Source: Escherichia phage APECc02. From it: DNA of 64,000 bases. Where the stretch lies: sequence record NC_041869.1; one strand, written 5' to 3'. The translations under genes and the position numbers were made by a program. This document shows, one piece after another, positions 5,469 to 62,753 of this stretch; within the stretch, counting starts at the first letter, position 1; every line of letters begins with the position of its first letter. The notes beneath the pieces are model-generated. The model saw only the letters and a program-made list of their open reading frames with translations, ran no database searches and was not told the DNA's origin.

Positions 5469-6794
5469 ATGAGCAAAACCAAATTAGAACTTACCTGGAT
5501 AGGTAAAAACGAGCGCAAAAAGTTAGAGCCACACATTTTGTTAGAAGATTCTAGCAAATCTTACCACAGCCAGAAAGTGACCGAAAACGATATTTTTGAT
5601 AATAAACTGATTTTTGGAGATAACTTATTAGCATTGAAGGCGCTAGAGCAAGAGTATGCAGGCAAAGTGAAGTGTGTTTACATAGACCCACCATTCAATA
5701 CCGGGAGGGCTTTTGAGCATTACGATGATAGCCTGGAGCATTCCATTTGGCTGGGCTTAATGAGGGATAGGTTAGAAATAATTCGTAATCTTCTAAGTGA
5801 TGATGGGGTAATATTCGTTCACTTAGATGATTGCGAAATGGCGTATTTAAAAGTTTTGATGGACGAGATTTTTGGTCGTGCAAATCAGTTAAATACTATA
5901 TCGATGACCACAAATTCCCCTTCGGGATTTAAGGCAACAGGAGCCACAGTTTTCTCCACAGCAAACTTTTTGCTTGTATATGCAAAAGATCGCACCCAGA
6001 AACCGCTTAACAAAATCTATATACCTAAAGGGTATGATACAGGATATAACAAATACCTATTAAACCCGGATGACCATTATAAAAATTGGACGTGGTGCGG
6101 TATTGCCGATGCGTTTGCAAAGGCCAATGGCTATAAAGATGCAAAAGAAGCCAAGAAAAAACTGCCTGATACATTCGATGATGAATTAGCACAATTCGCA
6201 ATTGATAATGCAGAACGTGTATTTCAATCTGTTGCAATTGGTGGTGGTGCTAAAATAAAGAGAAAAGAAACTATCGAGAAGTCAAAGAAAGATAGGGATA
6301 AGGTTTATGTACATCCAAATGAGGATGTTGAAGGATTTTATATCGCAAATGGTAGGCAAATGGTCTTTTACTCCAATAGGCTTTTGGAAATTGACGGTGA
6401 GATGCAACCTGCGGAACTAATAACTGATGTTTGGACAGACATTAGTTGGAATGGAATAGCAAATGAAGGCGGCGTTAGTTTCAAAAATGGGAAAAAACCA
6501 GAAGCGCTTTTGAAGCGGATTTTCGAAATGTGCACGCGAGAAGGCGATTTGGTATTGGATTCATTCGGTGGTTCGGGAACTACTGCTGCTGTAGCTCATA
6601 AGATGAAAAGACGCTGGATCTCAATCGAGCTAGGTGATCATTGTCATACCCATATTATTCCGCGCTTGGAAAAAGTGATCGATGGCGAAGATCAAGGTGG
6701 TATTTCTAAGTCTGTAAACTGGCAAGGTGGTGGTGGCTTCCGTTATTACAAACTTGCCCCGGCCTTAGTTGCGAAAGATAAGTCTGATCAATAA
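5469..6794 (+). CDS. DNA methyltransferase, beta-class amino-MTase (N6-adenine or N4-cytosine)
   Basis: motif IV DPPFNTG precedes motif I DSFGGSGTT (circular permutation typical of beta class / Mod-like MTases). Confidence 0.75.
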   Translation: MSKTKLELTWIGKNERKKLEPHILLEDSSKSYHSQKVTENDIFDNKLIFGDNLLALKALEQEYAGKVKCVYIDPPFNTGRAFEHYDDSLEHSIWLGLMRDRLEIIRNLLSDDGVIFVHLDDCEMAYLKVLMDEIFGRANQLNTISMTTNSPSGFKATGATVFSTANFLLVYAKDRTQKPLNKIYIPKGYDTGYNKYLLNPDDHYKNWTWCGIADAFAKANGYKDAKEAKKKLPDTFDDELAQFAIDNAERVFQSVAIGGGAKIKRKETIEKSKKDRDKVYVHPNEDVEGFYIANGRQMVFYSNRLLEIDGEMQPAELITDVWTDISWNGIANEGGVSFKNGKKPEALLKRIFEMCTREGDLVLDSFGGSGTTAAVAHKMKRRWISIELGDHCHTHIIPRLEKVIDGEDQGGISKSVNWQGGGGFRYYKLAPALVAKDKSDQ

Positions 6795-6807
6795 AGAGTA
6801 CAATCAA

Positions 6808-7113
6808 ATGATGAAACGTTATAAACCATACACTTTTGAAATCGATTTTGAACTTGACGATATGTTCACTGTGGAAGCTCAGGCAGTTGTCCAGTTGCCA
6901 GACCCAGAGTGTCGTGATTCTGATGTTGACTATTATGGATTTAGACAGATCACTGATGTGCATGTTTACCACAACGGTGAAGAGGTGGACTTCCACAAAC
7001 TGCCAAACGATATGCGCCACTCAATTTACAAACGTGCAGCCCGTGAACTAGAGTCCTATCTTGATGCAGCGACGACAGCAGCTGCATTTGCCGAAGAAGT
7101 GGGAGGTTTCTGA
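6808..7113 (+). CDS. hypothetical protein
   Basis: ORF track 6769..7113; start moved to first ATG after MTase stop (in frame). Confidence 0.45.
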   Translation: MMKRYKPYTFEIDFELDDMFTVEAQAVVQLPDPECRDSDVDYYGFRQITDVHVYHNGEEVDFHKLPNDMRHSIYKRAARELESYLDAATTAAAFAEEVGGF

Positions 7114-7508
7114 TGATTACAGATGTGAAGATTGTCCAATACCACTTAACCAAGTTGGAAGATGCTGAGAAAGAGCTTGCAGAAGTTCTGAATAGTGGAT
7201 ATACTTTGCTATCATGCGCCTGCTCAGACACCTACGCTGTGTGGACACTTATCAGGAAGGAAGAGCCTGCAGGGATCTTGGTGCCAAACCCTAAGATTAT
7301 TAGTGAGGTGGATGACTACCCCCAGGACGGCCTGCCAGAAGGCTGGGAAGTATGGGAAGGTGGTGAAAACCCTGCACCAGGTAAGTGGGTAAAATACAAA
7401 CTACGTAGTGGTGCACAGTACGCTGACTACTCTGATGACCTAGACTGGAGTCATTCTTCACCAGGATCATCTGCAAGTTCATATGATATCGTTGCTTTTC
7501 AGGAATAA
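7113..7508 (+). CDS. hypothetical protein
   Basis: 131-aa ORF, GGGAGG RBS, ATGA overlap with upstream stop. Confidence 0.5.
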   Translation: MITDVKIVQYHLTKLEDAEKELAEVLNSGYTLLSCACSDTYAVWTLIRKEEPAGILVPNPKIISEVDDYPQDGLPEGWEVWEGGENPAPGKWVKYKLRSGAQYADYSDDLDWSHSSPGSSASSYDIVAFQE

Positions 7509-7520
7509 GGAGAGGGTGTT

Positions 7521-8003
7521 ATGTCAGATTTTATGTGGAAAGTAGGCTATGCCACTCCTGAAATGTGCGAGGCTTGCTTTGTGAAAATAGGCCGCGAGGA
7601 TATCGACAAAGTGATCCTTAAGTTTCGTGATGTGGCTGTGATCGGCAACCGAGTGCTTAAGCACTTAAAGAATCTGAAGCTCACCAAAAAGAAGTTCTTC
7701 GGGCTTTTCGAAGAGAAAGTTGATGCTTGGACCCATTGCATTCAGGAAGCTAAATCTCACTACAGTGCTATCGTTACTCCAGAACGGGTAGCTAAGATGG
7801 AAGGATTCATTAACAGCACAGAATTTGAGTGTCTGAAAGCTGCACTCGATAGTTATCCGAAATGCCTTAAGCACTTGGACAAGTATGCAGAAAAGGATGG
7901 GGAAATGTATCTAACCCTGGACGCATATTATGAGATGCAAGAAATTTTAAATTTAGATTTGACATTGGTATCCACCGAGTATACAATAGGTATCCGGGTT
8001 TAA
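7521..8003 (+). CDS. hypothetical protein
   Basis: 160-aa ORF with GGAGAGGG RBS; followed by terminator. Confidence 0.5.
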   Translation: MSDFMWKVGYATPEMCEACFVKIGREDIDKVILKFRDVAVIGNRVLKHLKNLKLTKKKFFGLFEEKVDAWTHCIQEAKSHYSAIVTPERVAKMEGFINSTEFECLKAALDSYPKCLKHLDKYAEKDGEMYLTLDAYYEMQEILNLDLTLVSTEYTIGIRV

Positions 8004-8010
8004 CACTAGG

Positions 8011-8036
8011 CCCTGCCCGAAAGGGTGGGGCTTTTT
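8011..8036 (+). terminator. rho-independent terminator
   Basis: hairpin CCCTGCCC-GAAA-GGGTGGGG followed by CTTTTT; near-identical copy at 19032. Confidence 0.65.
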
Positions 8037-8054
8037 GCATTAGGAGACAGCAAA

Positions 8055-10887: not shown

Positions 10888-10945
10888 TGTTTAACAAAGA
10901 GTGGGAGGGGTAGTACAACCGCCTCCCCTTTAAGGAGAACTGTAT

Positions 10946-13369
10946 ATGAGTATGTGGTCTTTCGATTTTGAGTCATCCGGTTTGCTGGAAGACCCAGATC
11001 TTTATTATCACTGCGGTCTGTTTAAAGAGCTGAATAAGAACCGTTTTATGCTGTTCCTTCCTCTAAATGACCGCACACACTACTCCGAGGAGGATATAGA
11101 AAAGGCTAAGAACTTCATTCTGGCAAAGAAAACTCTTTATAAAGATTTTGAAGTTCGCATAGCAGATTTTTCGGAGTTGGAAGGTTGGCTTACAGGCAAT
11201 TCTGACTGGTCACCAACAGCTTTGAACTGCCATAACTGCTACAGTTATGACTTTATGCTAATGGAAAGATTATCCGGTATTCATTTTGATATGTTCCGTG
11301 ATCCTAAATGCATGGGGACTATCAACGACCACCAGGTTAATCTGTTTGATACGTTGGCTATGAGCCGAATATTGTGGCCTGATCGCCCTTTACCAAAAGG
11401 TTGTCCGGACGCTGTATTCAACCCGGTTACTAAGAAAATGCAACCTGTTGGTCCTCACGGCCTTATGGCATGGGGCTACGCCCTTGGTAACCAGAAAGTT
11501 CAAATTGATGACTGGCGCGATCTTCCGCTGTGGAAATATGTGGATCGTGTGTTCGAGGACGTTATCATCCAGGAGTTGCTCTGGAAAGAGCTGGTAGCGG
11601 AATCAAAAGGTGTATTCTACGGCAAATCTGACATGCAGAACTTTATGTACGATCCAGCCAAAGAGAAGCCGAAAGGGTTCAAGAAAATCACCTGGAAGAA
11701 CGCATTACGCCGAGGCATGCTGCAGCACTTCCTGATGGAGCTGCAGGCCCGTCAGGGTGTGTATTTCGACATAGATGGGGCTATTGCTTTACGTGACCGT
11801 TGCGATGCGTGGATGAAAGAGATCGCTGATCGTGTTGAACCTCAACTTCCTTTAAAAGAGTTGTCAATGTCTCAGCGGCCCAAGTTCCCTGAAAAGCCGT
11901 TTAACCAAGACGGGACAATCTCCAATAATGGTTGGAAATGGTTAAAAGATAAGCTTGGCTATCCTGTAGACATGAGCGCTTTAGAATTCAAAGCCCCGCC
12001 TAAGCGAGCATTTACCTCCACAGGAGATGTCAGCAAGATGGGGATAAAATGGTGCGAAGAGATGGGCTGCAAAGACCCCGACAAGATGGCTGATTTCTTG
12101 AGAGGTTATATTAAGGGCACCTCCACACCACAACCTTTACCTAAAGAGCTGATGGATCAGGCAATAAGTGATCTGCAGCAGAAGCGAATGCCTGACTGCA
12201 AGATACCTATGAAAATCAGCAATCAGGACGACATTAAGCGATACCTGATCAGTGCTGGTTGGCTTCCGACAATGTGGAGAACTAAGGATGTAACTAAGGA
12301 CAGCAAGAAGAAAGCTCTACCTGATGCAGATGTTGATGCACGAGTATATGCATACATGGACGAGCTTTTAGAGTCAGAGTATTGTGACCTAATTATCAAC
12401 TTCTGGAACAAAACTGATGCTAAGTTTCAGACAACAGTGCACAAGTTCCGAAGCTTTCCTAACTCCGAAAGGATTAAAAAGGAAGTGTTCGGGAAAATAC
12501 GCAGAAAAGCCAGGGCACTTATTACTTCTCCGCAACTGAAAGATACGTTTGGACACCTATGTCCGAATCTTGAAAAATTGAACGGAGAGATGGCTAAAGA
12601 TATCGTCTTGTGGTTATCATTGCGAAACCGCAGATCGGTCCTTGATCCAATCAAGGAGGATAAGGTTGATACTGGTCTTCTTAATCACCCACGTTTGAAG
12701 ATTGACCATAAGCTTCCTGCTAAAAGCTCTGGATTAACAAACACTTCCCGACAGAAACACAGTATTTGTGCAAACATGCCTAAACCATCTCCTAAAGTGG
12801 TTATGGGTAAAGAGATGCGTAGCTTGTGGGGTGTTCCTCCTGGATACTTTGAGATCGGTATTGACGGGTCCAACTTGGAGCAGCTTATCGGGGCTTGGGG
12901 TGCCTTTGAGTTCGACAACGGCTTGTACTATGATGTTGTAAGTAACGGGGACGCACACCAAAACAATGCTGAGGCATATACAAAAGTAGCAGGCAGAGAG
13001 GTGTCTCGTAACGACGGTAAACCTATCACGTATGGGGTTATGTACGGGGCACAAAAAGATAAAGTTGCAGATATGCTGGATATCTCCCCAGAGTTGGGGC
13101 AAAGGGTGATCGATGCACTTTGGGATGCCAACCCCGGTCTTAAGGGGCGCAAAGAGGATCTGGAGAAATTCTGGGAAGCAACAGGTAAGAAGTTTATCTA
13201 CTCTTTTGATGGTCATGCTATCTGGACCCGATCTAAACACTCTTTACTTAATGCATACCAACAAAATGGTGGTGCATCGCTGTGTGACTTAGTTGGGATA
13301 CTCATGCACCACCAAATGGTGAAGCGTGGGTGGTACGATGAAGGTGTCCGTCGTATTATCTATTACCAT
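10946..13369 (+). CDS. DNA polymerase family A, exon 1 (3'-5' exonuclease and polymerase motifs A and B)
   Basis: Exo I FDFESSG at N-terminus, motif A GIDGSNLEQ, motif B KPITYGVMYGAQ; RBS AAGGAG; track ORF runs 6 nt further to an in-frame TAA that I place inside the intron. Confidence 0.8.
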
Positions 13370-14211: not shown

Positions 14212-14565
14212 GATGAGTACCAACTTCAGGTCCCTGACACGCCTAAGTATAAGACTGTGTACACCTTCGACACAATTGAAGAGCTGGAAGCATTTAAGGC
14301 AGAGCAGGAAGCCAAACTTCATGTGTTCGACGGTCATAAGTACAAAAAGGCACGCAAGGATGAAGACGGAAACGAAGTGGTTGACAGAGACGGAAACACG
14401 GTGTACGATCCTATCCTGAACGATGACGGAAAGCTTGAACTTATCTGGAGCCCTGTGGGTGAAATGGTGGTGCATTGCTTCTGGCAAGCTTCTAAAATGA
14501 TGGGCGTCCCGTTCCAGATCACAGGTGAATACCTGTGTGGTCGTAATTGGGGTGATTGTCACTAA
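14212..14565 (+). CDS. DNA polymerase family A, exon 2 (motif C and C-terminus)
   Basis: predicted splice junction gives ...IIYYH|DEYQLQV, restoring the HDE motif C; C-terminus GRNWGDCH matches the PolA terminal NW...H; track ORF begins at in-frame TTG 14209. Confidence 0.7.
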   Translation, partial: DEYQLQVPDTPKYKTVYTFDTIEELEAFKAEQEAKLHVFDGHKYKKARKDEDGNEVVDRDGNTVYDPILNDDGKLELIWSPVGEMVVHCFWQASKMMGVPFQITGEYLCGRNWGDCH

Positions 14566-14614
14566 TGTAAACTATCAACACATGGAAGTGTTGTTGAGCA
14601 AAGAGGAGACTTTT

Positions 14615-14932
14615 ATGGTAGTAGAACCAACAAAAACATTTACATCCATGACTATCCCTGTTATTATGCAGGTGGAGTGTGTTCAGGTATCTCAAGTGTG
14701 GCCAGGCACTAAAATCCCAACAGGGCCTGATTTCTTTCAGGTTGGGAAAGTGTACAATGTCTGGAAGGCACCAGATTGTCACCCTTTCATTAAAGAGAAG
14801 GCACCAAATTGCTACCCTTTCATCAAAGATGACCGTGGAATGCTGTGGTATCTTGGAAATGATTTGACACTGCACCTTGGGAATGCTATTATTGCAGTAT
14901 TCAGACTTAACAAGAAGGAGACTGATCAATGA
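14615..14932 (+). CDS. hypothetical protein
   Basis: ATG with AGAGGAG RBS just after polymerase stop; track ORF 14525..14932 trimmed to this start. Confidence 0.5.
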   Translation: MVVEPTKTFTSMTIPVIMQVECVQVSQVWPGTKIPTGPDFFQVGKVYNVWKAPDCHPFIKEKAPNCYPFIKDDRGMLWYLGNDLTLHLGNAIIAVFRLNKKETDQ

Positions 14933-19015: not shown

Positions 19016-19031
19016 CATCTAGTTAACATAG

Positions 19032-19058
19032 CCCTGCCCGAAAGGGTGGGGCATTTTT
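19032..19058 (+). terminator. rho-independent terminator
   Basis: same CCCTGCCC-GAAA-GGGTGGGG hairpin as at 8011, followed by T-run. Confidence 0.65.
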
Positions 19059-19788: not shown

Positions 19789-19856
19789 GAGACTGTGATA
19801 GCTATGTTTTATGATCTTCCTGTAGCGCCACCACCTGTTGAACCAGGAGAACTAAG

Positions 19857-20282
19857 ATGATCTATGAAATGCCAAAACTGATTCGTGACGATGCCCAAAA
19901 CGCTCACACCATTATTATGGGCAAACGCATGGATATTATTTGTCATAAAGATTTCTGGGAAGGAAGTTACTTCACAGAGTATTTTGGTAAACTGGACAAT
20001 GGTCTGCTGATCCAGTTCTACACCGATGCGGAAAACAACATTCCCTGGGAGTTCGAAACTGAAGATGTCCATAAACTTTTCACCTTCCTCGGTATTAAGG
20101 TTAAGGCCAAGTTTGAAGAAGGTGAGTGCGACGATTGTGGATTTTATGAGGTAACAGATTTCTACCTTCCTAGCGGTAAGAACCTTTACTATGAAAGCCA
20201 CTTCGGTAACTCCAATATGCCACAGTGCTGGACTGAGTTTTTTGAAATTGCGGAAGAGGAGCTGGCTTACCGTGATTATTGA
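19857..20282 (+). CDS. hypothetical protein
   Basis: 141-aa ORF with AGGAGA RBS. Confidence 0.5.
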   Translation: MIYEMPKLIRDDAQNAHTIIMGKRMDIICHKDFWEGSYFTEYFGKLDNGLLIQFYTDAENNIPWEFETEDVHKLFTFLGIKVKAKFEEGECDDCGFYEVTDFYLPSGKNLYYESHFGNSNMPQCWTEFFEIAEEELAYRDY

Positions 20283-20730
20283 TACTGTAGAGGGAGATTT
20301 AATCTCCCTTTTTAAGAGCGGTGCTGGTCACCTGATCCACGGTTGTAACTGCTTCCACACAATGGGCAAGGGTATAGCAAAACAGATTGCCCGTGAGTTT
20401 CCTCAAGCACTGTCAGCCGACAAAGAGACTAGATACGGTTGCCTAAGTAAACTGGGTGCGTTATCCCGATGGGAGCACTTATCTCCGATAGGTATTGTCT
20501 ACGGAATCAATCTATATACCCAGTTCTACCCAGGACCTAATGCTGAGTATTTCTCAATCCTGAAAGGCTTTGAGCTAGTCAATGAAGTATTCAGCGGATC
20601 GACTTTACCATTCTACATCCCTAAGATCGGGTGCGGCATAGGCGGTTTGAAGTGGGAACACGTAGAGGACGTTATTAACCTTGCCACTTTCGACATAGAT
20701 ATTGTCGTGGTGGAGTACAAAAAGTGTTGA
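20272..20730 (+). CDS. macro-domain protein (putative ADP-ribose binding/hydrolase)
   Basis: motifs GDLISLF, HLIHGCNCFHTMGKGIAKQIAREF and IPKIGCGIGGL fit the macro-domain signature; probable GTG start at 20272 with GAGGAG 10 nt upstream (track ORF 20191..20730). Confidence 0.6.
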   Translation: MIIDTVEGDLISLFKSGAGHLIHGCNCFHTMGKGIAKQIAREFPQALSADKETRYGCLSKLGALSRWEHLSPIGIVYGINLYTQFYPGPNAEYFSILKGFELVNEVFSGSTLPFYIPKIGCGIGGLKWEHVEDVINLATFDIDIVVVEYKKC

Positions 20731-22557: not shown

Positions 22558-22869
22558 TACTTGAAAATTCCTGGCATATCAAGTGTAAGGGGGATTTCTA
22601 AAATGGATTTCCTCCTTTTGATATTTCACCAGGCTGGATATTTTAAAATTCTTAGAAAATCAGAAAATGGATCGAAAACTAAAATGGATTTTTCAGAGTA
22701 GGCGCGACAAGCTGAATAACTCATCCTATCGTTTGCACCATATTCCAGGCCACCATTATAGATTTCCCACACATGCTAACCTCCCTCTACTAGAACTTCC
22801 TCCACTTGCCCTTGACCTTCTATGGTAACAATCTAACCACTATCTTGAAGTTGCGGTGCAGCTTTCCAG

Positions 22870-22980
22870 GTACTCGATCTACTTTTCATTTCAGGGCTTG
22901 GATTTTCTGAAAATTTTTCTCGATAAATTTCTCAGTACTCGATCTGTTTTTCGTTTTCTGAATCGGATTTTCTGGAAATC
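22870..22980. repeat. about 65-bp imperfect tandem duplication in AT-rich ORF-free region
   Basis: GTACTCGATCT at 22870 and 22935; GGATTTTCTG(A/G)AAAT at 22900 and 22965; AAATGGAT repeated at 22601, 22665, 22682, 23035. Confidence 0.6.
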
Positions 22981-23165
22981 GTTCCGGATCTCGACCTGAA
23001 ATTTTTGGGGACGAAATCGATTTTTCGTTTTCAGAAATGGATTTTTAAAATTTCTATATGGGAATATTTTATGGGATACTGTTTTATAGGAAATTGTTAC
23101 GGAGGGTAATTAGCATGCTAACTAAATTTATGAAATGCGAAAAGTTCTCATTTAGAATTTTGAAT

Positions 23166-24575: not shown

Positions 24576-24980
24576 ATGAATAAGAACGTACGCCGCATCA
24601 TGAACGAGTTGGCAAACGATGAAAAAATTATTGACATGCATTTGATCAACATTTGCCGCCGTTGTGTAACATATAACAACCGCGCCGCAAAAGCGCGTGA
24701 GATGAACGCAAAAGGCACCTTAAAGCCATTCCAGGTGGTGGTAAAGGCCATTAAAGATGTAACTAATACGGCAAACCAGGTACAGGGGAACACCAACGAG
24801 AGTACCAATATTGATCCGGCTTACATCATGAAACGGATCCGGACCTGCAAGAACAAAGAGCAAGTGTATAATGTCATAGACTGGTTGGATTCTATGGGAG
24901 ATGTGGTTTACAACAGGTTTTCTGCAGCTATCGAGATCCAGCTTGACAGGTTGGACGGTAAAGTACTGAAAACTTACTAA
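24576..24980 (+). CDS. hypothetical protein
   Basis: 134-aa ORF; upstream TTGACA, GGCGGGAA/TTCCCGCC 5' hairpin, AAAGGA RBS. Confidence 0.5.
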   Translation: MNKNVRRIMNELANDEKIIDMHLINICRRCVTYNNRAAKAREMNAKGTLKPFQVVVKAIKDVTNTANQVQGNTNESTNIDPAYIMKRIRTCKNKEQVYNVIDWLDSMGDVVYNRFSAAIEIQLDRLDGKVLKTY

Positions 24981-24982
24981 GT

Positions 24983-25028
24983 TTATTTTTAGATGGCCTT
25001 GACTTCAGGGCCATCAATAAAGTAAACT
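24983..25028. repeat. conserved palindromic intergenic element, copy 1
   Basis: TTATTTTTAGATGGCC-TTGACTTCAG-GGCCATCAATAAAGTAAACT; 7-bp arms GATGGCC/GGCCATC with TTGACT in loop; directly after stop codon. Confidence 0.7.
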
Positions 25029-25260: not shown

Positions 25261-25602
25261 ATGACTACTATGACCGCCGCAGAAAAAGCTATGCAGATCG
25301 CCGCGCTGAAAAAACAGATCGCAGACCTTGAGAACAAGATCGATAACTTTGAAATCGACGAGGACAAGTACGACGAAAACTATGATGAATGGTTAGACGA
25401 GATCTACGGCGAAATTATGATCGGAAACATTTCTTTTCTTCCGTCGCGTATCCTCAAGGAGCTAGATCCTATCGCTTACCGCTGCGGATTTAGCGACTAC
25501 ATCGACAGCCTGGATATTGAGGACGATGAAGAATACCAGGAACTACAGACAGAGTTAGAAGAAGCAAAAGAAGAGCTTGCGGAGCTGGAAGAAAACGAGT
25601 AA
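25261..25602 (+). CDS. hypothetical highly acidic protein
   Basis: 113 aa, Asp/Glu-rich second half (DIEDDEEYQELQTELEEAKEELAELEENE). Confidence 0.55.
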   Translation: MTTMTAAEKAMQIAALKKQIADLENKIDNFEIDEDKYDENYDEWLDEIYGEIMIGNISFLPSRILKELDPIAYRCGFSDYIDSLDIEDDEEYQELQTELEEAKEELAELEENE

Positions 25603-25604
25603 GA

Positions 25605-25650
25605 TTATTTTTAGATGGCCTTGACTTCAGGGCCATCAATAAAGTAAACT
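25605..25650. repeat. conserved palindromic intergenic element, copy 2
   Basis: identical to copy 1 over about 46 bp; directly after stop codon. Confidence 0.7.
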
Positions 25651-25691: not shown

Positions 25692-25937
25692 ATGGCAGCA
25701 CTAATCACCAAATATTATGCCCCTACCAACACCAAAAGCGCCCGTATCATGGTAAAAGGCTTCGGACGTAAAAAGGTTTACACCTGGGATTATTCCCTAG
25801 ACATGGAAGACAACTACACCAACGCAATGACCGATTTTATTAATGAATTAAATAAGCAGATCTTGACAAGTTATAAAGTGACAGATATTGCTTATATAGG
25901 TGAAGGCGGGATCTGTTTTGTAGGCATTGTGAAATAG
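25692..25937 (+). CDS. hypothetical protein
   Basis: 81-aa ORF with AGAGGAG RBS. Confidence 0.5.
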   Translation: MAALITKYYAPTNTKSARIMVKGFGRKKVYTWDYSLDMEDNYTNAMTDFINELNKQILTSYKVTDIAYIGEGGICFVGIVK

Positions 25938-25985
25938 TTATTTTTTCGGTGGTCCTGGCTGCAGGGCCATCTATAAAGATAATTT
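25938..25985. repeat. diverged variant of the palindromic intergenic element
   Basis: TTATTTTTTCGGTGGTCCTGGCTGCAGGGCCATCTATAAAGATAATTTA; same position after stop codon, same flanks. Confidence 0.45.
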
Positions 25986-29144: not shown

Positions 29145-29345
29145 ATGAGCAACAATATCCGCGTTATTAACTTCAAAAAAGAAGAAAAAATTGCCGTGCT
29201 GATTGACGGTCAAGAAATCTTCAAGGGCGACTATGAAGATCATCAAACGGCGATTAGTATCACTCGCGTGATTGGTTACCATAATTTTTACCCCCAAGGC
29301 GCTGAGGCAGCGGTTAAACGAATCAAAGAGATTGTAGGCCTGTAA
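29145..29345 (+). CDS. hypothetical protein
   Basis: 66-aa ORF with AAAGGAGAAA RBS. Confidence 0.5.
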   Translation: MSNNIRVINFKKEEKIAVLIDGQEIFKGDYEDHQTAISITRVIGYHNFYPQGAEAAVKRIKEIVGL

Positions 29346-29348
29346 AAT

Positions 29349-29393
29349 TTATTTTTAGATGGCCTTGACTCCAGGGCCATCAATAAAGTAAAT
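29349..29393. repeat. conserved palindromic intergenic element, copy 3
   Basis: as copies 1 and 2 with one loop substitution (TTGACTCCAG) and AAAT end. Confidence 0.7.
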
Positions 29394-29439
29394 TTAAACC
29401 CTGTTAAAAATACCACGCAGTTAACAAGGAGTGATAGAC

Positions 29440-33394: not shown

Positions 33395-33420
33395 AGGGGC
33401 TTAAAGCCCCTTTCTTTTTG
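33395..33420 (+). terminator. rho-independent terminator
   Basis: hairpin AGGGGC-TTAAA-GCCCCT followed by TTCTTTTTG. Confidence 0.65.
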
Positions 33421-34028
33421 TCTCCTCTTTTCCTACCACAAATGGCCCCGCCTGGCAAATGGAATAATCAACAAGCCAGCAATTAACCCCACTGTACAAA
33501 CATACATATAAAATAACTATTGCATAATTTTTCATTGTGTGGTAGCAGGGCCATTTTTACACGTTTTTCCTTCCAAAATTGCACGTAATGCAGCATTTGC
33601 ACAAAATTTAACCTGATGCATATCTTCAATAGCTTGTCAACAACTAAAAATCTTTATAAGTCATACACTTACATAACTACAAAAGCGTTTTCTACGTGAA
33701 AAATCGAGTATAACTATAGCCGCCAGATCTCAGAATTTACGTACGCTCGCCATTCTATAGCCTGCTAAGCATTTATTCCAACCATAGAATAACGGAATAG
33801 TCAATACCTGCATAAAATAATTATTCGTGTAAACTGCATAACATAAATCGGCCCAGGTGTCAACATTTTTCGTAAACAGTCTGGAATTGTCACGTTAGGT
33901 TACCATAAGCAGAGAAATCTTTAGTCGTCTAATGTTTACTGTACGTTACTATACTAACTGAAATCATTAGATGACTAATAGAAAGATAAGAAATAATTAA
34001 CAATACAATTATTTTATCTGTAACAATA

Positions 34029-34205: not shown

Positions 34206-34317
34206 GCTTTTATATTATGTCATAGAAACACCCGAAGGGGTGACCAAAGGTTACCTGGCATAGCCAGTGAAAGATTATTAACTTGCTAATCTTTATCATG
34301 CAAACGAATGGCATGGC
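34037..34317. repeat. 20-bp perfect direct repeat ATGCAAACGAATGGCATGGC
   Basis: copies at 34037-34056 and 34298-34317. Confidence 0.65.
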
Positions 34318-34338
34318 TTATCATTTCTGTGTAAATAG

Positions 34339-34390
34339 TCTATGCGTAAACTGTCAAGGCGTAAACAATCTATGCGTGAACAGTGAAACA
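34339..34390. repeat. short direct repeats TCTATGCGT(A/G)AAC and GCGTAAAC
   Basis: TCTATGCGTAAAC at 34339, GGCGTAAACA at 34359, TCTATGCGTGAAC at 34369. Confidence 0.5.
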
Positions 34391-34423
34391 TGAAATAATA
34401 ACAGTTGTTATTGTGTCATATTG

Positions 34424-34505
34424 TGCTGCAGCGTGTTGAGTATGTTTAAGGTGCCCAGTATGTCACCATTATGTCACTATTGTGTCATAGTGTCATAGTA
34501 TGTCA
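34424..34505. repeat. iteron-like array of TGTCA(C/T) pentamers at about 10-11 bp phasing
   Basis: TGTCA at 34424, 34461, 34472, 34483, 34491, 34501 (plus 34362, 34525). Confidence 0.6.
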
Positions 34506-35083
34506 GACAAGTTTTTCCCCTCTTTGTCAAGTGCTGCATGAAAAAATTTACAAGCTGGTATGGTAGCATTTTTGCGGCCTTGTTTACATTCAGTAATGTA
34601 TGTATAACCCTTGATGTGTGGGCGTTTAGACGTCTAGACGGTCAGAAGTCTGCAGGTCAATATCTAATCTATTGGCTGCTAACTATATCCCCCACAAATA
34701 ATAAGAAATATAATTGTTATGTGCGTAAACAGTAACTCATGTTATCAATCCCTGTATGGATCGCCAGTGGTGCGCATAATGGGTATTATGTTAAATTGCC
34801 CGTAATGATAACTATTCTCACAATGATAGGTATTCTCATTCACCCCCACAAGATAGGTTGCAAATGTTGTGCCACTGTGTGAACGGCCTAGCCTATTAAT
34901 TTGCCTCACTGCCTTGATATTTGAGAATTGTTATAAGAATGAGAAGTATTCCCATTTCGTCCGCCTGGCAGCACTCCTGTAGGTCCTGCAAGGACTCTAG
35001 CTGAAAGCTAGACCCTTCGGGCCTCCCTGTAGGTCAGGTCAAAATCGTGGTAGAATTGGGCCTGTTCAGATATTTCTGGCTGA

Positions 35084-35643
35084 CTCTTCAGGTCTGTGTG
35101 GGAAAAGCCAACCTCTCCGGCGGGGCAGGGGGTCATGACGGGAAAATTGCAGGTCAATTAAAAAATTTACGTGGTGTATGAAGCGCTCTTCAGGTAAGGC
35201 ATGTATTATGGGATGAAACCCTCTTCAGGCAATGATATTTGTGGGTGTGATATTTGCTGGAAAGCCAGATATGACGGGACTCCCGGCGGGGCAGGGGTAG
35301 TACAGACAGGGAAAATATGAGAATGTAGTTGGGGAAATTGATCAGACAGGTAGAGTATGGAATATGTTACAAGTATGTTAAATATGGAGGTTGAATATCT
35401 GTAGGATTTGTGTGTAAAATCAAAGACTTAAGGGGTGTTGTGGTATTTTCTATAAATAATTCAAGTTTAATAGGCAATATTTGTCTCTATCCGCTTTGTG
35501 TGGTAAACAGATTCAGATTAGATTGGTTTACAAGTGTATACATAATATACAAATTAAAGATACAAGAAACCCCCCTCCCCCCTTCGGCTACCATTCACCT
35601 TTTCCTCTGACTGGTACTTAAACACTTATTCAGACTCTTCAGG
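35084..35643. repeat. dispersed direct repeats CTCTTCAGG (x4), CCGGCGGGGCAGGGG (x2), CCTGTAGGTC (x2)
   Basis: CTCTTCAGG at 35084, 35186, 35221, 35635; CCGGCGGGGCAGGGG at 35117 and 35283, each followed by G-rich GGGAAAAT. Confidence 0.55.
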
Positions 35644-35993
35644 TTATCACCCATATATCATATGGCAGTGACTGGTGTCCTCCGGCCCCTCTTTCGTCAC
35701 CCGTCCGCTTCGCCATGCTAATGCCATAGCTAATGGTTCGGTTGTTCACCCTGTTCACTCAGGTGTATCTCTATACCCCTTCAAACCGAAGAGAACAGAA
35801 AACCCGAATTACTCGGTAAAAGAAAAGAGAAGAACTTAATTTTATCAGGATAGGCAAGAATGTCAAGGCATGACTGCTCACTAAACAAGCAAACAGTCAT
35901 GTGTGGGAGGTAAGTGATTGTGGTGGTAGGAAATTTAGTTGAAAGATGTGTTATAGGTGCTTCCAGCACTTTAGCCGGGCAGCTAATTGTGTG

Positions 35994-36209
35994 TCAGTCC
36001 AGCGGTTCATCCTCTACTTCACTGAAATCAATGTTCATGGTCTCTTCCCAACCATCGATCTCAGCACAAGAGTGGAGTTCTTTAGGGTTTACTCCCAAAG
36101 CCTCAGCAACAGAGTCTATATTTAACACCTCTGGCAGGTATGATTCATCGAATTCAAGGTAAATCAGGCCACGAGTGTTGTCAGCTCCACCAAATATCTC
36201 TATCTTCAT
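35994..36209 (-). CDS. hypothetical small acidic protein
   Basis: 71-aa ORF, last gene of minus-strand block. Confidence 0.5.
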   Translation of the reverse strand: MKIEIFGGADNTRGLIYLEFDESYLPEVLNIDSVAEALGVNPKELHSCAEIDGWEETMNIDFSEVEDEPLD

Positions 36210-36330
36210 AAAATCTCCTCTGGGAATGAAAGTGTGAACAGGGTTTTATACGTTCTAATGCACAGGAATTATACACGTTTGCCTCTTCAGGCCATGCTTC
36301 AGCATGAGGAACCTGTGTGGGCTCGGTGCT

Positions 36331-36744
36331 TCATAGTCTACCACCCCTGAACTCTTCGTGCTCAGGCATAATAGAGAACCAGATATCTACGATGTCTTCC
36401 CACGTCAGGTCATCAGCCTCAGGATCTACCTGGAGCGAAGATGAAGAATCTTCAGAATCGAAGTTTTCCTCTTGCACTGGCTCAGTCAAGGGACATATAG
36501 TCACTCCTTTGGATGTCTCTTCAGATGCATGTGTGTTTATCATGTTCCACCCGTGAGTATTCCGGCAACAGCCACTATGGACGTAATGATCATCAGGATC
36601 ACCACCAAAACCTCTGACAATGTTTTCATTGTGTATCCCATATTCTCCAAACGATGTGTGGATACTATCACTGGATCGGTAATGTGTCAACAGAAACGCC
36701 GCGAGGGTTTGGTTAAAATCCGAGCGTATGGTGATTTGGGTCAA
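36331..36744 (-). CDS. hypothetical acidic protein
   Basis: 137-aa ORF co-directional with neighbours; overlaps plus-strand shadow ORFs. Confidence 0.4.
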   Translation of the reverse strand: MTQITIRSDFNQTLAAFLLTHYRSSDSIHTSFGEYGIHNENIVRGFGGDPDDHYVHSGCCRNTHGWNMINTHASEETSKGVTICPLTEPVQEENFDSEDSSSSLQVDPEADDLTWEDIVDIWFSIMPEHEEFRGGRL

Positions 36745-36903
36745 AACGGACGTGCGTTCTCGCTACGCTCGAAATATGGAGTTGTTTGTAGGGAGCTCTT
36801 AAACGCTCTGTAATGAAATTAACTACCCAAGGTATGCAATCGTGCACCAGACAAAGAAAAGGACGCCACAGAGCGTCCTAGGTGTCTTAAATTTGATATT
36901 TTG

Positions 36904-37203
36904 CTATACCCACGAGGGCTTATCAAGGTTGGAGTAGCTGAAAGGTGTCAAAAGGTGACTGTCAAAATCTCTCAAACTATCCAAATCTTTTTCCTCGTCC
37001 TGACACCATCTGTGCCTACATTTGTTGTTGTAGTGCATGGAATGCATAGCGTTCTGCAACTTAACAGGCACAAGTGATTCAGGAGTAGATAGTATTGTTG
37101 GGTATGCCAGAACCACCTCAAACAGTGGAAACACATCGAAACTAAAGTCTACCTCTGCAGAGGTTGATGGCATATAGGAGTATTTAGCCGCCTTTGTAGA
37201 CAT
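36904..37203 (-). CDS. hypothetical protein
   Basis: ATG with GAGGTGG RBS; track ORF 36904..37215 trimmed. Confidence 0.45.
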   Translation of the reverse strand: MSTKAAKYSYMPSTSAEVDFSFDVFPLFEVVLAYPTILSTPESLVPVKLQNAMHSMHYNNKCRHRWCQDEEKDLDSLRDFDSHLLTPFSYSNLDKPSWV

Positions 37204-37211
37204 AATCCACC

Positions 37212-37544
37212 TCACACAGGTTTGATAATACCTTCACCGAATAGCTCTTCGTATCTAATCTTGTCCGGATCCCACTCCTGTATAATTTCGAAGACAATAT
37301 CCAACCCAGGAACAATCACTTCTCCAGTGTCAAGCTTAGCAAGAACAAAACCGGAAGGTTGAATGGTTTCCCAGTTACGGCGATCAGAATAAAATACTTC
37401 GAAAATATCACCAACCTCAATCCGTTTCTGTTGCTCAAGATGCTGAAGGTTCTCTTTCATACGGATGCAGCGTATTTTTCGTGCAGGCCATAGACCACCT
37501 GCATCACGTTCATTCAATTCTTTTACAGTGATCGGTATACCCAT
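37212..37544 (-). CDS. hypothetical protein
   Basis: 110-aa ORF with GAAGGAGA RBS. Confidence 0.5.
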   Translation of the reverse strand: MGIPITVKELNERDAGGLWPARKIRCIRMKENLQHLEQQKRIEVGDIFEVFYSDRRNWETIQPSGFVLAKLDTGEVIVPGLDIVFEIIQEWDPDKIRYEELFGEGIIKPV

Positions 37545-37561
37545 CTCAAGTCTCCTTCATG

Positions 37562-37595
37562 GATAGTAAAAAGAGGGGCCTAAGCCCCCCCTCTT
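37562..37595 (-). terminator. putative rho-independent terminator (minus strand)
   Basis: 8-bp stem AAGAGGGG/CCCCTCTT followed on the minus strand by TTTACTAT. Confidence 0.45.
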
Positions 37596-37600
37596 TGTCA

Positions 37601-37906
37601 TTATTCTACAGAGCGTTTGAACAGAATGTCTGCCTCAGACATGTGCTCAACCTCTTCTTCGATTTTAGCTCGACGTTTTTCAGCCTCATATCGAATATCG
37701 AACTCGGTAGCCACCAGAGATTTGATGAATTTAGGAGAATACAGATGATCCTGCTTCTCAACAAGAATGATATCCTTGATGGCATCTTTCAAATCTTTAA
37801 TCTGAAGCTGGAGTTCCACCAGTTCTTCAATTGTTTTGCGAAGGCGATCACGTTCTGCAGTGTCAGAAGGAAGAGAGGTGAACAGTTCAACTTTAGATTT
37901 AGCCAT
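37601..37906 (-). CDS. hypothetical coiled-coil protein
   Basis: 101 aa, heptad-like charged sequence. Confidence 0.5.
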   Translation of the reverse strand: MAKSKVELFTSLPSDTAERDRLRKTIEELVELQLQIKDLKDAIKDIILVEKQDHLYSPKFIKSLVATEFDIRYEAEKRRAKIEEEVEHMSEADILFKRSVE

Positions 37907-37934
37907 AGTAAGAGTCTCCTTATGTTGTTTTAAA

Positions 37935-38186
37935 TTAACGTTCTACAAAAATACCGTTCAGTTCAATAACCAGGAATTTCTGGTCTTCACTATCGTCTCG
38001 TGCCAGCACCTCACAGACGTATCGGTCATCCCCATCATCATCGCAGTCAAATACAAGACTGAGGACTTTATCATGATAAACCTTCGCCACTACCGCCTCG
38101 TAAGTATTGCCGATTGTGAATCCAAGATAATCTCCAATGCATTTGACAACAACATGATCACCAGCATTCAAGTCAATCTTCGTCAT
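37935..38186 (-). CDS. hypothetical acidic protein
   Basis: ATG after AAGGAG; track ORF 37935..38252 trimmed. Confidence 0.5.
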   Translation of the reverse strand: MTKIDLNAGDHVVVKCIGDYLGFTIGNTYEAVVAKVYHDKVLSLVFDCDDDGDDRYVCEVLARDDSEDQKFLVIELNGIFVER

Positions 38187-38341
38187 TACTGCGCTCCTTG
38201 GGTAATAATACTGTATGTAAAACTTTAACCAGAGATGTGAATAACGCCCCAAAACACACCGATAGCGCTAAAACAGACAAGGCCATCATTAAAGCTTCAG
38301 TAAAATCAGTCACTCCTCACCTCTTGTTAGTCACTATACTG

Positions 38342-38605
38342 TCATTTATCCTTGCCGTCAAGAACTTTTTTAAATCTTTCAGGGATATCGCCTGTTCTTA
38401 GATAGCTCATGACCTCACAAGGTTCCCACTTGAATTTCTTACAAAGCAGGGCGGCTGAGATTGTTTCATTGCGAAAAGAAAGGATATTAATATCCCATTC
38501 TGAGAATCCCAACTTCCGAAGGGTAGCTACAGAAATCCTCACCGCAACCCAGCAGCAAAAACATGCAACAAACGCCACTGCTATAACCCACATCAGGATG
38601 TTCAT
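38342..38605 (-). CDS. hypothetical membrane protein
   Basis: N-terminal TM helix MNILMWVIAVAFVACFCCWVAV. Confidence 0.5.
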   Translation of the reverse strand: MNILMWVIAVAFVACFCCWVAVRISVATLRKLGFSEWDINILSFRNETISAALLCKKFKWEPCEVMSYLRTGDIPERFKKVLDGKDK

Positions 38606-38694
38606 ACAAGCACCTCACTGAAATACAAGACACAGTGTTAAGGTTACAGACCAGCAAATAATTAACAGTGCCGTTGCAACCTTGGCAAGATTTA

Positions 38695-38982
38695 TCATAG
38701 TGCCTCTAAGATTTCATATCCTTCGGGTCGGAATACAAGCCACTCCGTGGCTCCGTTTGGTCGATACGCTTTATACAGAACAACCTGATCTCGGCACATG
38801 CACATAGCTACATAGTTTTCATCCACACCTGCAGCCTGCATTGCAGCTTCTTCTCCGGCAACTGCTTTGCTTACAACCTCCTTAGTAGGCAAGTGTGCGA
38901 TCAGCTCGTCACCATCCTTAATTCCAAAATGGCTGAGTTCTCCATTGGTATCTTTAATCTTAATCTTAACCAAATCTTTCAT
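38695..38982 (-). CDS. hypothetical protein
   Basis: 95-aa ORF. Confidence 0.5.
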   Translation of the reverse strand: MKDLVKIKIKDTNGELSHFGIKDGDELIAHLPTKEVVSKAVAGEEAAMQAAGVDENYVAMCMCRDQVVLYKAYRPNGATEWLVFRPEGYEILEAL

Positions 38983-39311
38983 TAGTCTTCCTCCAGGTTC
39001 AAAGGTCCTAAGATTTCATATGCCAGATTAGAAGTTACCAGAGGGTCTTCTGCATCTTTAGTATTATACCACCCGTGAATAACCAGAGTCCCACTTTGTT
39101 TCATGTCCAACTGTAACTCTTCTGCCGTTTCCTCATCCAGCTCCAAGATTTCCATAAGGTATTTGATGTTAGGAAGGTATGCAGCTGTTACAGTTCCCTC
39201 CACCAAACCTTCGGGCCAACCTACATCTGGATGACAAGTAGGAACCAGGTTGGTCAGCTTAATGGTGTACGCTTTTTCTGCACGAGCCTTCAGTAACGGG
39301 TCAATCTTCAT
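38982..39311 (-). CDS. hypothetical acidic protein
   Basis: 109-aa ORF, overlapping stop/start. Confidence 0.5.
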   Translation of the reverse strand: MKIDPLLKARAEKAYTIKLTNLVPTCHPDVGWPEGLVEGTVTAAYLPNIKYLMEILELDEETAEELQLDMKQSGTLVIHGWYNTKDAEDPLVTSNLAYEILGPLNLEED

Positions 39312-60062: not shown

Positions 60063-60063
60063 T

Positions 60064-60657: not shown

Positions 60658-61265
60658 TCTTCTTGGGCCTCTTTAGCATCAATATACTTGCACACAATCT
60701 CCGATGCACACTCCCAAGGTGCACCTTCAGGGTTTACAACATCAAACTCAACCCCTTTTATTCCGTTCTTTTCCAGACTTAGATAGGTTCTGGAATCATT
60801 TCCCCAGTCATATCCTACACGGTGAATACGGAACAACAACAGATCTCCACCTGTGCTGTATGCGTACTCGCTAAGGCATGCCAGCTCCTCTTTGAATCCC
60901 CCATCGGAGTAAACAATAACCCCTTTACCTTCAGGGAAATCTTTCTTCAAAGATGCGACTGCGGCTTTACCGAAAGCATCTTCACCAAAGATAGGTTTAA
61001 TCAGATTTTCACTACAATGGATCATCCATTCTCGCGGAGAAACATGCTTGCCGTCTATCATTAAGAAAGGGCAAGGCTCTTCTTTGTAGTGACGGTCATA
61101 AAGTGCATTCCAGAGTTGAGGAGTTACACCAGCTGCCTTAATTGCCACACTGAAGAGCATTTCCTTAACCTCGCGGTGGTGTGAGTTAGGAATAGCTTCC
61201 AACAAGAGATCTGCAATGTGATCCTTACCACTGCTGGGTGGGGCGTTAAGAACAATAATATCCAT
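60651..61265 (-). CDS. deoxynucleoside monophosphate kinase
   Basis: P-loop NAPPSSGKD at N-terminus as in T4 gp1-type dNMP kinases. Confidence 0.65.
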   Translation of the reverse strand: MDIIVLNAPPSSGKDHIADLLLEAIPNSHHREVKEMLFSVAIKAAGVTPQLWNALYDRHYKEEPCPFLMIDGKHVSPREWMIHCSENLIKPIFGEDAFGKAAVASLKKDFPEGKGVIVYSDGGFKEELACLSEYAYSTGGDLLLFRIHRVGYDWGNDSRTYLSLEKNGIKGVEFDVVNPEGAPWECASEIVCKYIDAKEAQEEC

Positions 61266-61468
61266 TAAAAACCTCCGTGGTATTCTTCAACTGCATCAAT
61301 AATACTTTTACACTTATCTACCAGCTCGTTAGCCACTACAGAATCGTCTTCCCAAACAGCCTCCTCAATCTGATCAAGCAATGATCGCATCTTACTCATC
61401 ATTTCTGGGATAAAGTTTTCTGAAAAGCTGTCTGGAATTGTTAACTCTAGTGTCATTTCGGTCTCCAA
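61265..61468 (-). CDS. hypothetical acidic protein
   Basis: 67-aa ORF. Confidence 0.45.
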   Translation of the reverse strand: METEMTLELTIPDSFSENFIPEMMSKMRSLLDQIEEAVWEDDSVVANELVDKCKSIIDAVEEYHGGF

Positions 61469-61483
61469 TCATACTATGCGTTA

Positions 61484-61942
61484 TTAGAAGTTTGTTTTTA
61501 CACGTCCCTTCTCATCAACCTCGTTGTTAGCTAAAAGCGTTACAAAGTCTGTGAAACGAACATGAAGAACCCTTTTCTTATCAAGGTATCCTAAAGCCAC
61601 CCCTGAGAAATTTAGCATCAAAGGGGCTAAAGAAGCTCTGGCACTGAAATGCTGTTGTTCTACCCTTCCAACACCCTTAGTGTAGGATGGGTTAAGATTG
61701 TAAGTTCTGAATCCCAGTTTTGTTGGAGCTTTAGAATTAAAAACGACTTTATAGCGTTTCTTACTCAACTTATGCTCCAGGATAAGCATTCCCTTATCAC
61801 CTTTGATAAGTTGAAAATCTGTAAAGTGCTCTTTTAAGACGAAAGGTAGTGCCAGTCCCATCGCCTGTCCTCTTTGTACCGCTGTCTCACCAAAAGCTTT
61901 TGCATCAGTAAGTTCTTTGGTCAAGTCTATGCTTTTGATCAT
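61484..61942 (-). CDS. hypothetical protein
   Basis: 152-aa ORF; start may be downstream of track start (overlaps MTase end by 38 nt). Confidence 0.45.
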   Translation of the reverse strand: MIKSIDLTKELTDAKAFGETAVQRGQAMGLALPFVLKEHFTDFQLIKGDKGMLILEHKLSKKRYKVVFNSKAPTKLGFRTYNLNPSYTKGVGRVEQQHFSARASLAPLMLNFSGVALGYLDKKRVLHVRFTDFVTLLANNEVDEKGRVKTNF

Positions 61943-62753
61943 ACCTGGTCTCCAAAATGTATTGTAGTTCTTTCTTACCTATACTCTTCATTCCAGCAGT
62001 CTTACCTGCTTCTTCTTGAAAAGAAGAATAGCATTCAGCAAACACTCTGTCAACACCGTTAACTAAAGATTTTATGAAATATGTTGATTCTTCAGATTTT
62101 GGGTCATCATCCCCCAATACTTTTCCAGCATTATACCCAACACGTCTTACACAGAAGTCGTAGTCATCTGGTGTGCTAAAAGAAAATAACTTATTCTCTC
62201 CAATCTCTACAGGATCCCTATTGCACGCCTTTTTCTCCCAAATTTGGAAAACACATGGCACGTCATAAGGTTTGCCATTAAGTAAAAACGAATTCTTAGG
62301 GCACCTTTCGCTGTAGACAAGGTGCATCGACATGTCCAGTTTGTTTGCAAAAAATATTTTTTCAAATGTCCGTGGCAAGATGAAGGCTATAGCCCCTCCA
62401 AGCTCTAGCAATGATGCACAATGGTTAAAGAATTTGCAAGCTAAGGATGAATTCTTGCCAAATGGTGGGTTACCTATGAAGACATCTGCCTTGGGATGCA
62501 CCTCCAAGAAGTTTGCCTGAATGCACGGTGTTGGTCCTTCAAATTCAGGATCTGGTACTAAATCGTACGACAGTATCTCTGAAAATAGTTTTGAAAAAGA
62601 ACCCCTTCCAGCAGAAGGCTCAACGTATGCACAATTCCCATACTTATCTTTTACTTTACCAACAAGATATTCTGCATACTCAGGGTTTGTGTAGTATTTG
62701 TCGTTGGACTCTTTCTTGCTCAAAGTGCCTCCAAAAGGAAAAGGGAGGCGCAA
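61905..62753 (-). CDS. DNA N6-adenine methyltransferase, gamma-class
   Basis: motif I VEPSAGRGSF precedes motif IV GNPPFG. Confidence 0.7.
   Translation of the reverse strand: MRLPFPFGGTLSKKESNDKYYTNPEYAEYLVGKVKDKYGNCAYVEPSAGRGSFSKLFSEILSYDLVPDPEFEGPTPCIQANFLEVHPKADVFIGNPPFGKNSSLACKFFNHCASLLELGGAIAFILPRTFEKIFFANKLDMSMHLVYSERCPKNSFLLNGKPYDVPCVFQIWEKKACNRDPVEIGENKLFSFSTPDDYDFCVRRVGYNAGKVLGDDDPKSEESTYFIKSLVNGVDRVFAECYSSFQEEAGKTAGMKSIGKKELQYILETRYDQKHRLDQRTY

Follow-up and report, generated by a model that had tools for sequence, protein, structure and literature searches.

Four orphan methyltransferases of an rV5-like Escherichia phage: self-methylation at a few short motifs with a probably narrow benefit

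What does a phage gain from four DNA methyltransferase (MTase) genes, none of which is accompanied by a restriction gene? This question is raised by a 64,000-nucleotide stretch of DNA from Escherichia phage APECc02 (NC_041869.1), referred to below as the window, in which an initial annotation recognized four MTase open reading frames (ORFs) of different classes, designated here M1–M4. It was proposed that they provide heavy multi-motif self-methylation, either as broad anti-restriction protection or as epigenetic control of the phage's own promoters and origin. All four ORFs are indeed present and are supported by profile, motif or fold evidence, with a correction to the start of M4 (shifted to 62723). 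They are methyltransferases of four different sequence types, and they are orphans without a cognate nuclease. The expectation that no restriction endonuclease lies next to them was upheld, since a domain scan of ten flanking ORFs gave no nuclease family match above threshold and hence no type II restriction-modification (R-M) pairing for any of the four. The explanation considered probable here is that these enzymes methylate newly replicated phage DNA at a few short motifs and that the benefit is narrow. The four-MTase feature is real, ordinary, largely already known and partly characterized.

The closest characterized relative provides most of the evidence. A 7-kb segment with two of the four MTase genes matches 122 phage records, which are nearly all rV5-like E. 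coli myophages (genus Vequintavirus); the best matches (99% identity) are phages inoa, slur16 and WalterGehring (Bas51) and BASEL phages. By these sequence matches, the window is assigned to an rV5-like Vequintavirus genome. The curated record of Bas51 (Escherichia phage WalterGehring, MZ501111) spans the whole window and labels the same four genes, and no fifth MTase is annotated in the rest of its 140,659-bp genome. Gene order and context are the same in both phages, the M1 and M2 proteins are 100% identical, and M3 differs from its counterpart by V174A alone. Among the Bas51 genes nearby, nuclease annotations are confined to homing endonucleases, a DnaQ-like exonuclease and EndoVII. According to the Bas51 annotation, M1 and M2 are located in a replication block (helicase, M1, M2, primase/helicase, polymerase), and M3 and M4 in a nucleotide-metabolism block (ClpP-like protease, M3 and, further on, thymidylate synthase, M4, DnaQ-like exonuclease). 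At an identity of at least 90%, M2 is found in 115 phage records, M3 in 117, M4 in 119 and M1 in 86.

Bas51 escapes two retrons via mutations in 'an N6 adenine methyltransferase', of which D69G, D79G and T83P were rebuilt (Nakamura et al., PLoS Biol 2025, PMC12548924). The paper names none of the three annotated adenine MTases. Asp69, Asp79 and Thr83 occur together only in M3 among the four enzymes, and the enzyme studied is therefore the M3 orthologue. In the source data of that work (nanopore sequencing, calling of N6-methyladenine (m6A) only, 60% call threshold per site), wild-type Bas51 DNA has 1405 m6A calls at GATC, 509 at GTAC and 576 elsewhere, versus 35, 511 and 349, respectively, in the T83P mutant. 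The assembled Bas51 genome contains 703 GATC sites (1406 adenines) and 258 GTAC sites (516 adenines), so that 99.9% of the former and 98.6% of the latter adenines are methylated. Heavy multi-motif self-methylation is thus confirmed for Bas51, which is ~99% identical to the window phage, and the question of whether virion DNA is methylated beyond the host pattern is in effect answered affirmatively for m6A by these published data.

M3 is a GATC-specific m6A DNA MTase, as the GATC mark depends on the enzyme in its near-identical orthologue; between the two proteins there is no substantive difference. M3 would write this mark to completion, as shown in Bas51, where host Dam alone falls short. The same orthologue triggers the retrons Asa1 and Squ1, its expression alone is toxic to E. 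coli, and loss-of-function Bas51 mutants plaque at the wild-type level in the absence of a retron (PMC12548924).

The description of M3 as 'T1-Dam-like' holds for its specificity (GATC) but not for its family membership. The scores against the T1-Dam profiles are 19.2 bits for PF05869 (Pfam Dam; cut-off 28.1) and 16.1 bits for TIGR01712 (cut-off 97), and the match to the Pfam EcoRI_methylase profile is likewise below threshold. The protein matches phrog_799 (8e-67), and a single-sequence PDB search gave no meaningful match. M3 shares the product (Gm6ATC) and the orphan state with the E. coli/T4 Dam (alpha class) and T1-type Dam enzymes. It differs from them in its gamma-like motif order (motif I before NPPY) and in a core related to that of M4; no E. 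coli/T4 Dam-type family is listed in the M3 scans.

Table 1. Methyltransferase genes M1–M4 and adjacent hairpins in the window, with the corresponding Bas51 genes and labels
Feature	Positions	Strand	Evidence	Bas51 gene and label
M1, beta-class type III Mod-like orphan amino-MTase, 441 amino acids	5469-6794	+	PF01555, motif order, PDB relatives	bas51_0070, 'putative N6 adenine methyltransferase'
Terminator-like hairpin just 5' of M2, holds spurious GTG 8025 start	8008-8033	+	same sequence recurs at 19031-19057 (repeat family D8)	
M2, compact Dcm-like C5-cytosine DNA MTase, 254 amino acids	8055-8819	+	phrog_757, invariant motifs, DNMT3-like fold	bas51_0074, 'Dcm-like C5 cytosine methyltransferase'
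M3, small gamma-type N6-adenine MTase, GATC-specific, 177 amino acids	47739-48272	-	176/177 identity to bas51_0176, NPPY 84-87	bas51_0176, 'putative N6 adenine methyltransferase'
M4, small gamma-class NPPF amino-MTase, 272 amino acids from TTG 62723	61905-62723	-	phrog_5172 4e-129, EPSAGRG, NPPF, AF2/Foldseek	bas51_0200, 'putative N6 adenine methyltransferase'
Terminator-like hairpin between the DnaQ-like exonuclease gene and M4	62742-62761	-	8 pairs, 6 G-C, T-rich tail; loop holds spurious TTG 62753 start	

The T83P mutant retains the GTAC mark, and this motif is not one of those of E. coli K-12; m6A at GTAC must therefore come from another phage enzyme, which writes it to completion in Bas51. 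This reaction could be performed by M4 or M1, of which M4 is moderately favoured. The invariant motifs EPSAGRG (motif I, residues 35–41) and NPPF (motif IV, residues 85–88) of M4 are followed by a C-terminal half that is also conserved, in the order of gamma-class enzymes. The assignment of this ORF to the gamma class is thus retained, and its start is not: TTG 62723 is most likely the true start rather than 62753, because it is preceded by a GGAGG ribosome-binding site, gives an N-terminus that fits the homologues and is also the start annotated in Bas51. The family is outside the curated Pfam and NCBIfam models: the Eco57I score of M4 is 15.5 bits (cut-off 25.3), there is no NCBIfam match, and PHROG 5172 is annotated as 'unknown function'. 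The core of M4 is homologous to that of M3 (hhalign probability 91%, E 1e-6), by which M4 appears to be a distant paralogue of M3.

Several arguments favour M4 as the GTAC enzyme. M.HpyAXII, M.PabI and M.CviQI are GTAC-specific m6A MTases producing the same mark as that on Bas51 DNA, and M.HpyAXII, with proven activity, is also a small gamma-class, M.TaqI-like enzyme (331 amino acids, catalytic Asn87 versus Asn85 in M4); the likeness is one of architecture. As a distant paralogue of M3, M4 is related to an enzyme whose target, GATC, differs from GTAC in the two central bases only. M1, by contrast, is built like the Mod subunits of type III systems, an architecture typical of asymmetric sites and not of palindromes such as GTAC. 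Finally, M4 homologues are found in bacteria in a layout resembling an R-M operon.

Alternatively, not all four enzymes act on DNA: M4, and conceivably M1, could methylate RNA or protein or be inactive, with M1 producing the GTAC mark. The predicted structure of M4 (AlphaFold2 (AF2), pLDDT 91) gives the tRNA enzyme TrmN as the top Foldseek match and also matches the RNA MTase PH1948, some homologues are named 'predicted RNA methylase' by JGI, no curated family matches the protein, and two clear m6A motifs have been reported versus three predicted amino-MTases. However, Foldseek also matches M4 to M.TaqI, M.BseCI and CamA, the core is homologous to that of the proven DNA enzyme M3, and the architecture is like that of M.HpyAXII. 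Together with the R-M-like two-gene operons of the bacterial homologues and the Mod-like build of M1, this makes the alternative doubtful, and M4 is retained as the likelier writer of GTAC m6A.

In 19 of 80 bacterial loci with an M4 homologue, the gene for a conserved protein of ~215 amino acids lies next downstream on the same strand, as in an R-M operon. These loci (the partner at L012:1845-2498 and L033:4774-5445, and 17 others among L018-L081) belong to Sphingomonadales, Rhodobacterales and others; in L012 the partner gene overlaps the end of the MTase gene. The partner contains invariant residues, including an FDI...PTSIK...QRRLQCS pattern, and a profile search yields 447 homologues, all named 'hypothetical'. 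It has no Pfam, NCBIfam or significant PDB sequence match (best E 0.68) and is a candidate for a new restriction enzyme family. M.HpyAXII differs in this respect, being paired with a PabI-type restriction glycosylase. On long contigs, two M4 homologues have viral-looking surroundings, and neither is paired as in an R-M system.

A more far-reaching combination can be put forward only tentatively. M4 would be the GTAC enzyme, and a minimal gamma-class family would thereby have its first member of known target, the bacterial pair would represent a new type II R-M family, and M1 would add a third mark, either an asymmetric m6A motif among the 349 'other' calls or N4-methylcytosine. If M4 writes GTAC and M1 a further mark, the phage bears methylation marks of three or four distinct kinds. 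Host EcoKI methylation, with 13 sites, could account for at most 26 of the 349 'other' calls in T83P, provided that the propagation host was EcoKI-proficient.

M1 was described as a beta-class amino-MTase, and the description is borne out by both the profile score and the motif order. The match to Pfam PF01555 (N6_N4_Mtase) reaches E 4e-42 and 145.1 bits (curated cut-off 26.7), and DPPF (residues 73–76) precedes FGGSG (366–370), as in beta-class enzymes. The nearest solved structures are type III Mod subunits, those of Helicobacter pylori (6k0w, 1e-28) and EcoP15I (4zcf, 2e-24). M1 shares with them the N-terminal catalytic region, the beta motif order and a central target-recognition region, but it is shorter (441 versus 618–644 amino acids) and its motif IV is DPPF. 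Some database records name M1 homologues BamHI-methylase-like, whereas the solved relatives are N6-adenine Mod subunits. The flanking ORFs contain no nuclease or Res (helicase-nuclease) domain, and the Bas51 neighbours are hypothetical proteins and replication genes; with no Res subunit adjacent, M1 is an orphan Mod-like enzyme. In a DNA search, M1 is missing from ~32 of 116 vequintavirus records by a clean ~1.34-kb deletion of this gene alone; the phages without it include the BASEL phages AlexBoehm (Bas56) and HeinrichReichert (Bas58). Judging from these records M1 is an accessory gene within the genus and is dispensable. Its target motif could be asymmetric.

The assignment of M2 to the C5-cytosine MTases is upheld by invariant motifs and a DNMT3-like predicted fold. 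Profile searches against Pfam and NCBIfam give no match at E up to 0.1, PF00145 included, but a few M2 homologues carry precomputed PF00145 matches. The protein matches phrog_757 'DNA methyltransferase' (3e-87) and belongs to a homologue family of 3555 members. Motif I (FDGSGG, residues 18–23), Pro88-Cys89 (FPPC) and Glu135-Asn136-Pro137 (ENP), which correspond to the C5-MTase motifs FxGxG, Pro-Cys and ENV, are invariant across 28 homologues. A profile of the family gives only marginal matches to PDB sequences (E ~0.1; DNMT3B and M.HaeIII over motifs I–IV), and a fold search was needed to settle the assignment. In this search, with an AF2 model (pLDDT 88.4, pTM 0.88), the top 50 PDB matches of Foldseek are exclusively DNMT3A, DNMT3B, DNMT3C and the prophage MTase 3g7u (best E 6.9e-6, TM 0.5–0.57). 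The predicted structure of M2 is thus a C5-MTase catalytic-domain fold of the DNMT3-like type. The annotated TTG start at 8055 is correct: it has an AGGAGA ribosome-binding site, and the upstream GTG is spurious (Table 1). A near-consensus sigma-70 promoter (TTGACA, 17-nt spacer, TACAAT; 11 of 12 matches) is located inside the end of the preceding ORF and is followed by a strong terminator hairpin before M2 (7959-8033).

The probable target of M2 is suggested by a relative. The 711-bp Dcm gene of a KarlJaspers-like phage (K42 Dcm) directs 5-methylcytosine (5mC) formation on the multicopy single-stranded DNA (msDNA) of retron Ec86, for which a CCWGG site is required; 5mC was detected by liquid chromatography–mass spectrometry, the key residues are C82, E128, K175 and K176, and expression of the enzyme by itself is toxic to E. 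coli (Wang et al. 2023 preprint, 10.1101/2023.08.16.553469). The protein herni_21 (236 amino acids), from a phage of the same genus as the K42 Dcm phage, carries these four residues at exactly these positions. M2 is 54.5% identical to herni_21 over the full length, and its C89, E135 and K182 align with the Cys, the Glu and one Lys. M2 and K42 Dcm belong to the same family of compact (~230–250 amino acids) DNMT3-like C5-MTases, which is represented in ~1500 phage records. They differ in that the K42 Dcm phage is a member of Drexlerviridae and in that CCWGG is reported for K42 Dcm and only presumed for M2. By this analogy M2 would write 5mC, probably at or near CCWGG.

Could four such enzymes protect the phage broadly, by masking enough sites to escape most host R-M systems? 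Four MTases of different types and two fully methylated 4-bp motifs speak for this possibility, but the plating data contradict it for the six systems tested. The BASEL study described the Vequintavirinae as 'exceptionally susceptible' to R-M systems. In its raw data (S1 Data), the efficiency of plating of Bas50-56 is ~1e-4 to 1e-3 on EcoRI, essentially no plaques are formed on EcoRV, and type III systems restrict these phages strongly, to varying degrees. Restriction by these systems is to be expected, since methylation of GATC, GTAC and CCWGG cannot mask GAATTC, GATATC or AGACC. Broad anti-restriction, as originally suggested, is therefore very improbable, and protection by these MTases can only be motif-limited. 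On the type III systems, Bas51 departs from these close relatives: it is partly resistant to EcoCFT_II, with a variable plating efficiency of ~0.05, and forms no plaques on EcoP1, while Bas50 and Bas52-56 show the reverse pattern, which is not explained by the presence or absence of M1.

Another function discussed for phage methylation is epigenetic regulation, in which the GATC and GTAC marks would time expression, replication or packaging at promoters, the origin or pac. Dam methylation acts in this way at the P1 pac site. The initial annotation pointed to GATC clusters in repeat regions, which were not found: the densest 500-bp window contains 8 GATC versus a mean maximum of 9.0 at random placement. 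Non-coding DNA has 2.5-fold fewer GATC sites than expected (21 versus 52, p = 3e-7), and a 2.6-kb non-coding gap contains 5 sites versus 13.7 expected. The only repeat with methylated motifs is a 47-nt element in three copies (22860-23045, spaced 65 and 74 nt), two of which carry GTACTCGATC; complete methylation of such sites could act as a switch. The absence of GATC clustering and the non-coding depletion argue against regulation, as do the M3-null phages plaquing at the wild-type level and the natural absence of M1 from about a quarter of the relatives. Regulation is accordingly considered quite unlikely.

Scarcely more probable is host manipulation or repair evasion. Here full methylation would spare phage DNA from nicking by MutHLS, as MutH acts at unmethylated GATC, or over-methylation of host DNA would disturb its replication and repair. 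The toxicity of the M3 orthologue and of K42 Dcm in E. coli is consistent with this, and so is the drop of GATC sites below the 60% call threshold when M3 is lost, even in a Dam-plus host. Such a role, however, offers no reason for GTAC or C5 methylation, and M3 mutants plaque normally on the control without a retron.

The preferred explanation, methylation of the phage's own DNA at a few short motifs, could proceed as follows. Being located within the replication and nucleotide-metabolism blocks, the MTases are probably expressed alongside replication, and progeny DNA would be modified as it is made: at GATC by M3, at GTAC by a second enzyme, presumably M4, and probably at CCWGG by M2. The likely benefit would be narrow, motif-specific masking, directed against restriction enzymes for which unmethylated GATC, GTAC or CCWGG is the target. 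Avoidance and modification may be combined. Among 4-bp palindromes only CTAG is more depleted than GTAC, although GTAC is fully methylated (observed-to-expected ratio (O/E) of GTAC 0.59, z -8.7 in Bas51; 0.70 in the window), and CCWGG is also depleted (O/E 0.70), while GATC is not (0.99). The phage would thus both avoid GTAC and CCWGG and modify GTAC and probably CCWGG. The cost is that some retrons sense methylation of their own msDNA and abort infection; MTase activity is sensed in this manner by Asa1, Squ1 and Ec86.

A number of points weigh against this explanation or its parts. Every type II and type III system tested strongly restricts the BASEL vequintaviruses, and the benefit of methylation is a presumed one. 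Bas56, which lacks M1, is no more sensitive than the phages with M1, and no protective effect of M1 is seen against any of the six systems. As GTAC and CCWGG are depleted, methylation is evidently not the phage's only answer to enzymes targeting them. For M4, the choice of this enzyme rather than M1 as the GTAC writer follows from indirect arguments, the resemblance of its fold to tRNA and rRNA MTases points in another direction, and GTAC depletion did not discriminate between bacterial loci with an M4 homologue and its partner (O/E 0.73) and those with the homologue alone (0.82). For M2, Lys176 of K42 Dcm is replaced by Ile at residue 183, and its presumed activity and motif in the window phage are extrapolated from relatives.

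Some further features of the region deserve description. In the 47-nt repeat, GTACTCGATC sets both methylated motifs side by side, which may be what was originally meant by GATC in repeats. A 51-nt element occurs in four copies (24978-25028, 25600-25650, 25934-25984 and 29344-29394) and contains an inverted repeat that surrounds TTGACT (GATGGCCTTGACTTCAGGGCCATC), with an A/T-rich tail behind it. It is located among small early genes, contains neither GATC nor GTAC and resembles a repeated module, either regulatory or of the promoter-terminator kind.

The 2.6-kb non-coding gap (33401-35989) has no convincing ORF and lies where the plus- and minus-strand gene blocks converge; the corresponding Bas51 region is likewise unannotated. 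Its GC content is 39.8% versus 43.5% in coding DNA, it contains a 15-nt tandem repeat (3.6 copies, 34331-34384), and Rfam and tRNA scans of it found nothing. The longest GTAC-free stretch of the window (35614-39267; 3653 bp versus a mean spacing of 471 bp) starts in the last ~375 bp of this gap and extends ~3.3 kb into small minus-strand genes. About 0.06 such stretches are expected by chance, which is marginal.

Bas51 differs from the window in extra homing-endonuclease insertions in the region. They are located between the primase/helicase and polymerase genes, within the polymerase gene and further downstream (L001:11034-11768, 14329-14835 and 19799-20377). At least the first of them is apparently missing at ~10890-11000 of the window, where the Bas51 match is 732 bp longer. 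Many GenBank records labelled 'Campylobacter phage' (MG065635-MG065690; host C. jejuni) are 96–100% identical to E. coli vequintaviruses over the MTase genes, and some of them are 35–75-kb fragments. These labels probably reflect mislabelling or contamination rather than true Campylobacter hosts.

More than 100 vequintavirus genomes have been deposited with these four genes annotated; for one of the enzymes the specificity has been published, and for another there is a characterized close relative. The original rV5 genome paper is silent on methylation and restriction, and the papers on the enterohaemorrhagic E. coli (EHEC) defence island and on retron Eco2 contain nothing specific to these MTases. 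The specific gap in this picture is the fully penetrant GTAC m6A mark on Bas51 DNA, for which two predicted MTases, M1 and M4, are the possible writers. For phages of this group, it should be kept in mind that the possession of four MTases does not make a phage restriction-resistant. Several retrons sense phage MTases, and genes that are read as protective are therefore documented weak points, which is relevant to the choice and engineering of therapeutic rV5-like phages.

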